Shown here: piece by piece, positions 57,634 to 63,077 of the stretch
Numbering within the stretch: the first letter of the stretch is position 1
Layout: each line of letters opens with the position of its first letter
Assembly: GCA_963785235.1 (NCBI GenBank)
Contig: CAWAUM010000013.1
Span: 64,001 to 128,000 of the forward strand
Length of the DNA: 64,000 nucleotides
Direction: 5' to 3'
DNA from: an uncultured delta proteobacterium
GTDB lineage: Bacteria; Desulfobacterota; Desulfomonilia; UBA1062
Notes under the pieces: model-generated
What the model was told of the DNA's origin: nothing
Database searches by the model: none
What the model saw: only the letters and a program-made list of their open reading frames with translations
Made by a program: the position numbers and the translations under genes

Positions 57634-57766
57634 ATGCTTGAAAAGTAAAGAGAGGCAGGAACATAAAGAGAGGCAGAGTCTTGACTATCTTGACGAGCAG
57701 GCTATCTAGTCCCTGTATGTACTGAGGCTGTAAACAGTTCCCATGAAAAGGCGGATAGGCATATCC

Positions 57767-58726
57767 ATGGGTGAATGGAAGGAGAGGAAGGTCGTTATTG
57801 TCGGGGCCGGTTCAGTCGGTTCGACCTTTGCGTATGCGCTTGCTCAAACCGGTATTACCGACACTATTGTCCTTCTTGATCAGAACAAGGAGTTGATGAA
57901 AGGACAAGTTCTCGATCTAGAGCATGGATTTCCTTTCTGGCCTACAATAAACATCCGGGAAGGCTCACAGGATGATTATCAAGATGCCCATGTTATCGTC
58001 ATTACCGCAGGGGCGAAACAGCAGCCAGGGGAGTCACGATTAAACCTTCTCAAGAAAAACATCACCATCATAGAACACATTGCCCAGGACATTGCAGCTC
58101 AAGGCTCGCAGGCTGTCATTGTGGTTGTAAGCAACCCTGTGGACCTGCTGACGTATGCACTATTAAAAAAATTAGACTGGCCGCGAGGTCGAGTGATCGG
58201 CTCAGGCACCTTTCTCGACAGTGCTAGATTCCGATATCTGCTCAGTCAACATTGCGGAATTGATGTCCATAATGTTCATGCATATATTCTGGGAGAACAT
58301 GGCGATAGTGAATTTGCCCCATGGTCCATGACCCATATTGCCGGTATGCCCCTTGATCAATACTGTCTTATCTGCAATGAATGTGGTGACTTGAAAAAAG
58401 TACAGCAGCAGATCGAAGACGAAGTCAGAGATTCCGCCTACCATATCATTGATTATAAGGGATCCACCAATTTTGCCATCGGATTGGCCCTGGTTCAAAT
58501 TGTTGCAGCAATTGTGCGAAATCAACACAGTGTACTGACCGTCTCTACACTTCTGAACGGGGAGTATGGGCTGCATGATGTCTGTATAAGCATTCCTTGT
58601 ATACTCTCCCAGCATGGCGTGGAACAGATTATCGTGGAGAAGTTGACAAGGGATGAATTGCAGGCATTGGTGCACTCGGCCACTGTTTTAAAAAAAACAT
58701 CCGACGAAGTGCATGGTGTATCTTAG
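57767..58726 (+). CDS. ldh: L-lactate dehydrogenase
   Basis: GAGSVG, TAGAKQQPGESRL, NPVD, LDSARFR and GEHGDS. Confidence 0.93.
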   Translation: MGEWKERKVVIVGAGSVGSTFAYALAQTGITDTIVLLDQNKELMKGQVLDLEHGFPFWPTINIREGSQDDYQDAHVIVITAGAKQQPGESRLNLLKKNITIIEHIAQDIAAQGSQAVIVVVSNPVDLLTYALLKKLDWPRGRVIGSGTFLDSARFRYLLSQHCGIDVHNVHAYILGEHGDSEFAPWSMTHIAGMPLDQYCLICNECGDLKKVQQQIEDEVRDSAYHIIDYKGSTNFAIGLALVQIVAAIVRNQHSVLTVSTLLNGEYGLHDVCISIPCILSQHGVEQIIVEKLTRDELQALVHSATVLKKTSDEVHGVS

Positions 58727-58952
58727 CCCGAATCCTACGTATATGGTTGTTCCCTTCCTGTAATTTGATAATCAAATAAACCCAGCTTTTGCAATTGAAT
58801 GTAGAGATAACTGCTCCGTACTCTTCAGGTGTCCTTCAACGTAAACCCTGGGGTATATATGCATACGGAATAAGCCAGAACCCATTAGCATGCCAATGGC
58901 ATCTACAAACTAGTGAGGGAATTAAATGAGTAGCAATAAAAGGAGAACTACC

Positions 58953-59306
58953 ATGAAAAGACAATCGATGATTTTAATAATACTCATGGTTGTGATGGCA
59001 ATATCAACATCTCTGCTTGCCGGTGAGGCCAACCGCAGAGATGTAAGAGACCTGAGTTATCTCAAGGCCAATCCTGGTGTAACGGTATCAGAACAAGTGA
59101 CGTCAGGTCTGATTGATAGAAGGGACGCAAGAGACCTGAGCTATTTGAACAGTACCGGCATGCCAGGGGTATCGAGCCCGGATGTCGTCGTACAGGTAGA
59201 TAGCAACAGAAGGGATGCAAGGGATCTTGCGTACTTGCTTGGCAATTCTCAAGATATCAGGGTTGATGAGCCAAACAATACGATCCTGATGTGTTGCCAG
59301 AGGTAG
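58953..59306 (+). CDS. Small secreted protein with three RRDxRDLxYL repeats
   Basis: AGGAG RBS and signal peptide; repeats begin at 59031, 59115 and 59205. Confidence 0.8.
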   Translation: MKRQSMILIILMVVMAISTSLLAGEANRRDVRDLSYLKANPGVTVSEQVTSGLIDRRDARDLSYLNSTGMPGVSSPDVVVQVDSNRRDARDLAYLLGNSQDIRVDEPNNTILMCCQR

Positions 59307-59347
59307 AGATACAGGAAGTTGAAACTGACAAAAAACCAACCGCATCT

Positions 59348-59387
59348 CAAGACGGCGATGCATCCTGAAATCGCCGTCTTGTTTTTA
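59348..59387 (+). terminator. Intrinsic terminator
   Basis: CAAGACGGCGAT...ATCGCCGTCTTG followed by TTTTT. Confidence 0.75.
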
Positions 59388-59886
59388 TATCCATGTGGCA
59401 TGGTCTTTATGAAAGGACCGTACCCGATTTAATCCACTTAATGTTCACCATATCATCGTTTAAAAATAAAGCACCACATGTAAAGAATAGAGCCATAATG
59501 AGAAAACAAAAAGAGGACGTTTATTTGCAAAACCGGAAAGGGTAAAGGCAGATTTGCAACGATGCATTATTGCATAGTATATGCGTAACCGCATCGATTA
59601 GGATAAGGTCTTTTTATCAGTCATGATAAAATATTCCAGATAGGACAGCGGTGTTCTCTTTGATATGAATGTTATTTTAGTGAGTTAAACGAAGGATCTC
59701 TTTATACTCCCAGCAACTCTTCAATCGATAGTTTTGTTCATGAAAGACCAGATGAAAATGAATGTGTTGCAGAAAAACTAATATCCTGTCTCAAGGTTGC
59801 AGCGATTCTTAAAAGACATTTTAATATCTTATAACAAATTGCATGTAAGTTCCGTACATTATGTTATTTTATTTATAATCGTATAA

Positions 59887-59904
59887 TTGGTACGATGTTT
59901 GCTG
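59887..59904 (+). promoter_or_regulatory. sigma54 promoter of the second porin-like gene
   Basis: TTGGTACGATGTTTGCT, GG-N10-GC; AT-rich spacer and candidate UAS at ~59765-59803. Confidence 0.65.
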
Positions 59905-60123
59905 GACGATGTATACAGATCTCTGTGAATTTACTCTGTTCTAGAGGTGGCCGTGACCGATTTTTTTGTACCAAAAGGCTCGCAACGCTGATAAAAAGGA
60001 AAACAACATAATCTCATAGAATTTGGCTCATTGAAGAATATCACCAGAGATTGTTTAACAAAAGTTCTCAATAAGGGGAACCTAGACTATATACGGATCT
60101 GAAAAAAACACTAGGAGGAGAGC

Positions 60124-61275
60124 ATGAGGAAGTTTATAGGATTCTTGCTGGCAGTAGGTTTGGTTTTCGCCTTTTCCGCTTCTGTCTTTGCAGCAACGGT
60201 AGAAGAGCGTCTCAAGACTTTGGAAGACACAATAGGGGCATGGTCTTTCTATGGAAGTGCCCGGATGGCCACTTTTTATGAGGACTCAGATAGTAAGTGG
60301 AACGATAACTATGGCGTTACGGAGGGTGTTGCTGATGGGCCAGACACCAAGGGAACACGTTTTGGTTTGGCCGGCAACTCGCGAGTTGGTGCACGGGTAA
60401 AAAAGGGAGATTTTGGTGGCCGGTTCGAGATCGGACTCAGAGAAGACAAAGTTGCAAATCGCCTGATCTATGCAACCTATACCAATAATGACGTAACATA
60501 TTTGTTTGGTCAGGATTATGCGCCCCTGGGTGACTGGGGCAACAGCAACCAGGTCTTTTATTGGGATAATGACATGGCCGGTTTTGGTATAATTGATGAA
60601 GACCGGACCCCTCAGGTCAAAATCAGCTATAAGGGACTCCAGGTAGCATTCGTGCAGACTCAGAGTTCTGATGTCAGCACACTCGGTCTGACAGCGAGTG
60701 ATGCAAAAACAGAGACACTCTTCCCTCATCTTGAGCTCAAGTACAGCCTTGCCACCGATAAATTCTTTGCCGATGTCTTTGGCGGATTTGGTTCCTATAA
60801 AGTTAAAGCAGACAGCCTGGATATCGATGAGTCAGTCAGCTCATACGCACTTGGTTTAAATGGGGGCGTAACCCTCAACCCGTTCTATGCCAATGCCATG
60901 GCATGGATGGCACAGAACGGCCCACAGATGGGTCTGAATCAGGCTGATGCTGCAGGCGCCCGGATGGATCCGATAACAGGTGATCTCACCGATGATGATG
61001 AGTGGGGGTATGCTCTGGTTGCAGGAATGAATATACAGAAGATTACTGTTGAAGCAGGTTATGGCTATGTTCAGTCCAAGCTCGATGAGAGCGGGGCCGA
61101 TAAGAATAACGCCCAGAACTACTATATACAGGCAGTGATCCCGATAGCAGAAGGGAATGGAGCAAAATTCTCAGTTACACCTGAAATTGGTCAGTATGAT
61201 TATATGAAGGATGAAACCGGAGCCACCGAGGGCAAGGCATGGTATGCCGGTGCAAAGTGGCAGCTTGACTTCTAA
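60124..61275 (+). CDS. Outer-membrane porin-like beta-barrel protein
   Basis: Signal peptide (VFA), FYGSAR, SRVGA, YAGAKWQLDF C-terminal Phe motif; AGGAGG RBS. Confidence 0.8.
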   Translation: MRKFIGFLLAVGLVFAFSASVFAATVEERLKTLEDTIGAWSFYGSARMATFYEDSDSKWNDNYGVTEGVADGPDTKGTRFGLAGNSRVGARVKKGDFGGRFEIGLREDKVANRLIYATYTNNDVTYLFGQDYAPLGDWGNSNQVFYWDNDMAGFGIIDEDRTPQVKISYKGLQVAFVQTQSSDVSTLGLTASDAKTETLFPHLELKYSLATDKFFADVFGGFGSYKVKADSLDIDESVSSYALGLNGGVTLNPFYANAMAWMAQNGPQMGLNQADAAGARMDPITGDLTDDDEWGYALVAGMNIQKITVEAGYGYVQSKLDESGADKNNAQNYYIQAVIPIAEGNGAKFSVTPEIGQYDYMKDETGATEGKAWYAGAKWQLDF

Positions 61276-61647: not shown

Positions 61648-63077
61648 CTATTCCGACCTGAGGTCAATGATCTCCATACAGTGGTTTGCAGACGGGTTAC
61701 TACGGGATGGCCCCTGGGCAAGGATGACAAGGTCTCCCTTCATCCCATGTTCATGGAGCCATGACTTCACATATTCTCTCCAGTCATTTGGCGGGTCGAC
61801 TTCATGGGTGGGAAGGACGCCCGACGAGAACTGGAGCTGTTGACACGTGAGCTCTGAACGGCTCAGGGCAACGATCCACACCGGGAGCCTGAACCGGGCA
61901 ATACTCCTTGCCGTGGCCCCACTGTGGGTGGGGACAAACACCGCTGCAGGCGAGATATGCTTGAAGGTAGCCTCTATACTGAACACGACCATGTCACTTG
62001 CCCTGCTCGTCTGTGTTTCCGTAATCTCCTTGAGCCTTTCCCTCAGGCGATATCCCGGGCCGTAAGGCTCGGTGGCTTCAGCGATACTGGCAAGCATTGC
62101 TGCAGCCTCCACGGGATACCTGCCCATAGCGGATTCACCGGACAGCATGACGCAGTCCGTGCCGTCTAAAATGGCATTTGAAACGTCCGTTACCTCGGCC
62201 CGTGTGGGCCGGCGGTTTTCCGTCATGGATTCGAGCATCTGGGTTGCGGTGATCACCGGTTTTCCATGCATGATGGCCTTTGCCATGAGCTCCTTCTGGA
62301 CCATGGCAATGCGCTCGATGGGTATCTCCACACCCAGGTCTCCCCTTGCAATCATGACGCCGTCCGTGACCGCCAGGATGTCTTCCATATGGGTCAGGGC
62401 TGCAGATCTCTCGATCTTGGCAATGATAAAGGGATAATAACCAAGATCCTCTGCAGCCTTCCGCACTGACTTGATATCTTCACCTGAGACCACGAAAGAT
62501 TGACAAACCGCGTCCAGACCATGTTCGGCCGCAAATTTCAGACATGCATGGTCCCTTTCCGTAAACGCGCTGATGCCCAGATCAATGCCCGGCAGGTTGA
62601 GTCCCTTGCGGGAGCGCAGCTCTCCCCCACGAGTACTGAGCAGATTACATCGCTGCTTTGCACCTTGATAACTTCGAGCTGGATGATACCGTCATTCAGA
62701 TAGAGCATATCCCCGGCCTTTACTGCCTGGGGGAGCTTTTTGAAGCTTACCGACACCCTTGACTCATCACCGGTTATTTCATCGCTCGTGAGCGTAAAGG
62801 TATCGCCCGGTTTCAATTCGATTGCGTCCTGGACCAACTCGCCTATACGCATCTTGGGTCCCGGCAGGTCGGCCATGATTGCCAGCCGCTTCCCCACGGA
62901 CCTCGCCGTAGACCTCAGGTCTTTAATCACCTGGGAATGGGAATCAAAATCGCCATGGGAAAAATTGAGACGGGCAATGTCCATTCCTGCCCTGATCATC
63001 TGCTCCATTACCTCAGGGGCCTGGGAGGCCGGACCGATAGTGCATACAATCTTGGTCTTGTGCTGAGGCAGCTTCAT
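61648..63077 (-). CDS. pyk: Pyruvate kinase, frameshift in a G-run at ~62625
   Basis: TKIVCTIGPAS, RLNFSHG, IAKIE, MIARGDLG, ATQMLESM and LSGESA. Confidence 0.95.

Follow-up and report, generated by a model that had tools for sequence, protein, structure and literature searches.

The CpxP/Spy LTxxQ proteins and the PcoE/SilE metal sponges are small, exported and partly disordered proteins that act intact via repeated motifs, and the functional-amyloid subunits FapC and CsgA combine a signal peptide with imperfect repeats and C-terminal cysteines. Among peptide precursors, the oxazolin precursor HvfA (NTHI1441) of Haemophilus influenzae is described as a protein of 95 aa whose signal peptide takes up 24 aa and in which a motif is repeated three times; this motif, AEGKCGEGKCG, is Cys-based and is modified by an MNIO enzyme together with a partner from the same operon (PMC11252979). 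The KEX2-processed repeat proteins (KEPs), which include the alpha-factor and ustiloxin precursors, are presented as eukaryotic (fungal) proteins cut by KEX2 at dibasic sites (PMC6339444).

Here, we describe a small gene located in a window (the whole stretch of DNA analysed, 64,000 nt) of a contig from an uncultured delta proteobacterium. A preliminary description had reported a signal peptide, three RRDxRDLxYL repeats, variable linkers and a terminal MCCQR, and had proposed either a precursor of signalling or RiPP-like peptides cut at dibasic sites or a multivalent linear-motif ligand. Compared with HvfA, the protein shares the small size (about 95-117 aa), a Sec-type signal peptide, 23-24 residues long and assigned to signal peptidase I, and a short motif in three copies between variable residues, whereas its boxes contain no Cys, no such operon is present, MNIO was found in 0 of 15 genomes of the genus, and there is no sequence similarity. 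The likeness to KEPs lies in secretion (an N-terminal secretion signal is recognised by inspection and by family conservation), in a near-identical repeated motif and in basic residues at the repeat borders; the differences are the bacterial host, the 12 of 50 modules lacking a dibasic pair, and a conserved part that is the box and not the peptide between sites. No sequence relation to CpxP/Spy or PcoE/SilE was observed, and the protein carries no His/Met-rich motif; a lead to PcoE from a protein atlas (score 0.85) was under the level counting as evidence. The explanation that we tentatively favour, at a little short of an even chance, is an intact, exported repeat protein whose three short, helical boxes serve for binding and whose C-terminus carries a pair of cysteines.

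The features of the locus are collected in Table 1. An AAGGAG ribosome-binding site (58940-58945) is located 7 nt 5' of the ATG at 58953. An alternative in-frame start at 58926 would give a protein of 126 aa with nine extra residues; in a distant metagenome homologue (L002, 59% identical) the frame of this upstream ATG is closed by a stop only four codons on, and both the second ATG and the AAGGAG are retained, so 58953 is the likelier start. The 5' region of L002 is 75% identical at the nucleotide level over 77 nt, though its protein is only 59% identical. As promoters, a sigma-70-like site was rejected (the scanner's sole candidate falls within the coding sequence), TTAAAT at 58922-58927 fits poorly as a -10 box with contigs from RNA runs that begin at 58920, and the spacing of a sigma-54 promoter does not fit anywhere. 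Downstream, the terminator mentioned in the preliminary description was recovered 42 nt past the stop as a hairpin with arms at 59348-59359 and 59370-59381 (-28.9 kcal/mol, z -3.1), which a simple terminator scanner missed because the loop is 10 nt long. In the orthologue of a same-genus genome (L001 in G011, 86% identical), the orthologous hairpin is retained with changes on both arms, as read off the alignment without a count. With its own ribosome-binding site, its own terminator and a conserved 5' region, the gene is autonomous, and its neighbours are not conserved; the preliminary description of the locus held wherever it could be checked. The dN/dS values were 0.41, 0.37 and 0.34 (versus L001 and L002), and these sequence comparisons indicate a real gene under purifying selection.

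Table 1. Coordinates of the features of the small gene and its flanks, given as positions in the window.
Feature	Position	Strand	Remarks
Coding sequence	58953..59306	+	117 aa plus stop; open reading frame
Conserved 5' region (promoter and/or 5' UTR)	58876..58952	+	Includes AAGGAG; from the alignment with L001 and L002
Intrinsic-terminator-like hairpin and T run	59348..59389	+	12-bp stem, 10-nt loop
Dispersed intergenic repeat copy (5' ~85 nt only)	58773..58856	+	nhmmer E 5.9e-19; 97 nt upstream of the start codon
Predicted Sec-type signal peptide, aa 1-23	58953..59021	+	By inspection and family conservation
Module 1, aa 28-55	59034..59117	+	Box RRDVRDLSYL, aa 28-37, 59034-59063
Module 2, aa 56-85	59118..59207	+	Box RRDARDLSYL, aa 56-65, 59118-59147
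Module 3, aa 86-117	59208..59303	+	Box RRDARDLAYL, aa 86-95, 59208-59237; ends CCQR, 59292-59303

The predicted signal peptide consists of a basic MKRQS, a 16-residue hydrophobic core and LLA followed by GE, with A at -1, and its presence agrees with the earlier description. Residue A23 is invariant across the family, and cleavage by signal peptidase I after LLA is probable from these features. As no Cys follows LLA (the junction reads LLA-GE, and the first Cys is residue 114), the sequence has no bacterial lipoprotein lipobox with Cys at +1. The hydrophobic core is unusually conserved (V13, M15, A16, I17) and could serve instead as an uncleaved membrane anchor. The predicted mature part comprises 94 residues (10.4 kDa, pI 4.95), among them two Cys and 11 each of Arg and Asp.

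The three repeats were found where they had been reported, beginning at aa 28, 56 and 86 and spaced by 28 and 30 aa. Their codons vary while the residues are kept, as previously noted: the box pairs are identical at 22, 17 and 22 of 30 nt versus 9, 8 and 9 of 10 residues. Translated in six frames, the complete 3.91 Mb genome contains 7 matches to D.[RK]D[LIM].[YF][LIM], three of them inside this open reading frame, and the box repetition exceeds chance. Module statistics were drawn from 50 modules in 17 sequences. The box follows basic-D-x-basic-D-L-x-Y-L, in which the first basic residue (-3), the D, the second basic residue and the second D are present in 50/50 modules each, the L in 48/50 and the Y in 43/50. 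The residue before the box, which completes a dibasic pair, is basic in only 38/50 modules; in some lineages it is replaced by P, G, H, S, T, E or W, and the P0015 and P0017 lineages are without the pair (P, G or H there).

The boxes keep a nearly constant distance: boxes 1 and 2 are 28 residues apart in 13/16 sequences, boxes 2 and 3 are 28 or 30 apart in 15/16, and box 3 lies 28 residues from the C-terminus in 12/17. Homology between the first two modules extends over the full 28 columns (hhalign probability 97%), and module 3 matches them more weakly (82% and 89%, respectively). Homologous modules at near-fixed spacing describe the protein as one 28-residue module in three copies; its linkers drift in sequence and not in length. 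The linkers are Ser/Thr/Val/Gln-rich; the variability attributed to them in the preliminary description applies to their sequence, whereas their length is conserved across the family. At the C-terminus, the reported MCCQR was present in the translation, with C114 and C115 as the only cysteines. Across the 17 sequences C115 is invariant and C114 occurs in at least 90%, and the CC with two following residues is retained in 16/17.

Pattern and profile searches were carried out, and the resulting family contains 17 sequences of 107-149 aa in about 15 billion proteins, with one layout throughout. All of them originate from metagenomes or MAGs and carry no label beyond 'hypothetical protein'; the family is very rare and unnamed. 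A word-indexed search yielded 12 proteins out of 28 candidates, and an exhaustive HMMER search of 1.84 billion representatives returned 10 at E<=0.001, consisting of 8 small members and 2 large repeat proteins. A profile search at near lengths gave the same 16 clusters and no further member, and no longer or fused form (262-2000 aa) was found among 8000 scored candidates, which is weak evidence. Pfam gave no match (best E 0.091, 13 bits versus a cutoff of 32), and NCBIfam (with no precursor family at E<=1), PHROGs and PADLOC gave 0 matches each. The family profile matched 0 PDB sequences at E<=10, and the best protein-atlas score (0.87) was under the useful level. Literature searches with the motif strings retrieved nothing related, only unrelated antibody work. 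Among viral contigs, 7 pattern matches were obtained, none of them a relative, and a scan of a genome collection from a two-sequence alignment of distant members found no relative with patterns that fell in the signal peptide. A DNA pattern for the K-type box gave 7 loci with a single match each, which were judged to be chance (untranslated).

The gene is single-copy in its own genome (G000) and present in 2/61 related genomes, its own included: in 1/14 other genomes of the genus, 0/22 from other genera of the family and 0/24 from a second family of the class. Scanning one genome per species (185,579 species) found only the same-genus MAG (G011), and a metagenome collection contributed one locus (L002). 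A tentative pointer to the taxon is the nearby 2-oxoacid:ferredoxin oxidoreductase, for which the best named match was a Desulfomonilia MAG at 70%. DNA runs with shares of 0.20-0.51 were labelled wetland, freshwater, sediment, rock and soil. In 4/4 metatranscriptome runs examined (4 studies), one short contig each was found (157-271 nt), wholly within 58920-59273 and 92-99% identical to the window. As judged from these contigs assembled from RNA libraries, the gene or close relatives are probably transcribed.

In the window, the gene order is a Lon-like protease, a ChaN/Tiki-like gene (-), an L-lactate dehydrogenase (+), the small gene (+), an 817-nt spacer, a 383-aa outer-membrane protein (+), a tRNA (-) and two pyruvate kinase pieces (-). 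The ChaN/Tiki superfamily includes predicted proteases. In G011, the L-lactate dehydrogenase is missing, a rhodanese-domain ORF is located between the small gene and the porin, and the ChaN-like gene is present; L002 is flanked by a cyclophilin-like gene and a nitroreductase-HhH gene. These three loci, two of them from one genus, constitute the available context, and their contents differ. As stated earlier, no modifying enzyme is located beside the gene in 3/3 loci, and the same applies to maturase, peptidase-exporter and ATP-grasp/radical-SAM genes. MNIO (PF05114) was found in 0/15 genomes of the genus, including its own (93% completeness), and the control set matched in Caulobacter. The model of the outer-membrane protein (pLDDT 69.7) is a porin that has 16 strands and a helix at the N-terminus, closest in fold to DcaP (TM 0.73 on target) and then to OmpT/PorB/OmpF-type porins; on this model it is an ordinary DcaP/OmpF-like general porin. 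None of the genes around it in the window is found near its orthologues in G008 and G002, and the ChaN-like gene is kept at 84-86% identity beside porin paralogues in genomes without the small gene. Since the neighbours differ among loci, and the porin and the ChaN-like gene occur without the small gene, no adjoining gene is dedicated to it.

An AlphaFold2 model from the 17-row alignment had a mean pLDDT of 49.3 and a pTM of 0.20, with most of the mature part below 50, and gives no confident fold. A helix is predicted at 2-23 (the signal peptide), and elsewhere helices appear only on the boxes (30-33, 56-67, 92-95). The preliminary description had held that a known structural domain would speak against it, and none was identified, either in this model or among PDB sequences. 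Because the alignment is shallow (17 sequences), the low pLDDT is no proof of disorder, and the fixed 28-residue period with Val-rich linkers could equally reflect a folded pseudo-threefold domain hidden from AlphaFold.

The two large repeat proteins offer the nearest resemblances. P0019 is a 782-aa BlaR1/M56-type protein from a metagenome, whose C-terminal part (residues 410-770) contains 11 repeats, R-F-S-A-[RH]-D-L-x-[YF]-L, at an exact 30-residue period; these repeats match no Pfam model and have no solved relative, and a P0019-like protein is absent from this genome. What these repeats have in common with the small protein is a box of the form R-x-[SD]-A-[RH]-D-[LI]-x-[YF]-L, recurring every 30 residues in P0019, which differs in being a membrane protein with 11 repeats and helical-looking linkers. 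P0018 is a 2048-aa phage-fibre-like protein with repeats often 28 residues apart and a weak match to the PHROG 'virion structural protein'. In hhalign comparisons, the unit of the small protein matched the P0019 unit with a probability of 84% (score 20.8, over 17 columns; maximum of 60 column shuffles 16.6) and the P0018 unit with 79% (score 20.0; maximum of 60 column shuffles 12.9), the two matches covering only 17-22 columns. No match was obtained between the units of P0018 and P0019. Both proteins are the top picks from 1.84 billion, and given their short matches and the lack of a mutual match they are treated as leads and not as homology.

An exported protein working intact is consistent with four features, namely a gene that is autonomous, modules of fixed length, short helices on invariant boxes that are both charged and hydrophobic, and the lack of a maturase, and an intact envelope protein is more likely than a precursor cut into peptides. 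Under the favoured reading, the Sec system would export the small protein and the signal peptide would be removed, leaving about 94 residues (10.4 kDa, pI about 5) that would act intact in the periplasm or cell envelope. Each box would probably form a short helix, and the three boxes could provide equivalent docking sites whose spacing is fixed and to which a single partner, or else a repetitive structure of the envelope, would bind in a multivalent manner. The cysteine pair, two residues from the C-terminus, may tether or cross-link the protein or carry thiol or metal chemistry. We infer that the protein is exported, that its boxes are helical and bind, and that the cysteines have such a role. 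Among the points against this reading is the combination of an invariant box and a variable stretch, as multi-core precursors show the same pattern. If the reading is correct, a bacterium would have built a multivalent ligand from a triplicated 28-residue module, and the protein would offer a compact model in which to study short linear motifs of the bacterial envelope. Whichever reading holds, the family is small (17 sequences) and is of immediate use as a defined target for simple expression and mass-spectrometry work.

The nearest rival is a compact globular periplasmic domain with three-fold internal symmetry, in which each module would contribute a helix plus strands and the boxes would be structural; its main difference from the favoured reading is the exposure of the boxes. 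The strict 28-residue period of homologous modules, the Val/Ile-rich, strand-like linkers and the resemblance of the unit profile to the 30-residue repeats of P0019 (84%, 20.8 against a shuffle maximum of 16.6) argue for such a fold, whereas AlphaFold stays below a pLDDT of 50 over most of the mature part, a PDB sequence match is absent, and both P0019 and P0018 are best picks whose short matches leave their units mutually unmatched. We consider this fold unlikely, and a self-assembling fibre or functional-amyloid subunit, FapC- or CsgA-like and exported past the outer membrane, very improbable. Three imperfect repeats, strand-prone linkers and a C-terminal Cys motif are consistent with a fibre, as are the possibly high expression judged from contigs of RNA runs and the resemblance to the 28-residue repeat of P0018 (20.0 versus 12.9) with its weak virion structural match. 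Against it, the boxes are rich in Arg and Asp and not in Asn, Gln or Gly, no Fap- or curli-like operon with a dedicated outer-membrane channel was found, and the outer-membrane protein next to the gene has the fold of a general porin and is unlinked to the gene elsewhere.

The remaining explanation is a multi-core precursor, whose exported cassettes would be cut at basic residues, or modified by an unlinked enzyme recognising RDxRDLxYL, to yield signalling or RiPP-like peptides. This is somewhat more doubtful than the compact domain, although it retains some weight: the layout joins a signal peptide to three cassettes, in each of which the box is invariant and the remaining stretch varies, and HvfA is a Sec-exported RiPP precursor with three repeats whose layout (95 aa, 24-aa signal peptide, three repeated motifs; PMC11252979) is very near this arrangement. 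Furthermore, a basic residue lies ahead of every box (50/50 modules), and a ChaN/Tiki-superfamily protein adjoins the gene in the window and in G011. The analysis nevertheless added nothing in favour of cutting at dibasic sites or of a RiPP-like route. A conserved site at every repeat border was not observed, the dibasic pair being limited to 38/50 modules; maturase, peptidase-exporter and ATP-grasp/radical-SAM neighbours are lacking in 3/3 loci, MNIO is found in 0/15 genomes of the genus although the control genome set matched, no NCBIfam precursor family appears at E<=1, the ChaN-like gene persists at 84-86% where the small gene is missing, and linker length is conserved across lineages. A more specific form, in which each 28-residue cassette is a recognition box plus a lineage-variable core processed in the periplasm of an anaerobic Desulfobacterota-like bacterium by an enzyme encoded elsewhere, is slightly less likely again. 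In that form, Gram-negative bacteria would have a new class of exported peptides, signalling or RiPP-like, whose maturation system is unlinked. If the precursor reading in general were true, this would be a new peptide system with maturation genes located apart from the precursor, and neighbourhood-based genome mining would always miss such systems. Of the two readings in the preliminary description, the multivalent linear-motif ligand fits better, given a low-confidence model with helices only on the motifs, a strict module length and a lone gene with its own conserved 5' region; its interpretation is partly supported overall, and neither reading is proven.

The flanks of the gene were also compared. 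The repeat copy upstream of the small gene belongs to a dispersed intergenic family with 67 copies at E<=0.01 (nhmmer, 3.9 Mb genome), of which 58 lie mostly outside ORFs of at least 100 aa; 28 copies are in the same orientation as the next gene and 39 in the opposite one. Full copies measure about 150-170 nt, and a copy is also conserved upstream of the G011 orthologue. No Rfam match was obtained at the repeat, and RNAalifold found no consensus structure on either strand; the repeat may be a MITE-like element. The stretch from the ChaN-like gene to the porin is variable, with the L-lactate dehydrogenase before the small gene in G000 and the rhodanese ORF after it in G011 (L001 2236-2580 versus window 57743-58726). 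The spacer before the porin (59307-60123, 817 nt) is 88% identical over about 590 nt in G011 and 71% over 147 nt in G008. Unusual conservation of this spacer was considered and rejected, as the peptide gene together with the region upstream of it reaches 89-92% against 88% for the spacer, and it is the porin coding sequence that diverges instead. The porin gene (60124-61275, +) is 74.6% identical at the nucleotide level between two same-genus genomes versus 88-92% in the flanks, and this fast divergence may reflect selection on a surface protein. Further downstream, pyruvate kinase is split into two pieces (61648-62493 and 62538-63077, both -). The 179-aa piece matches the barrel profile at 2-151 and the 281-aa piece matches it at 201-327 together with the C-terminal domain; the split could result from a frameshift, a pseudogene or an assembly error.
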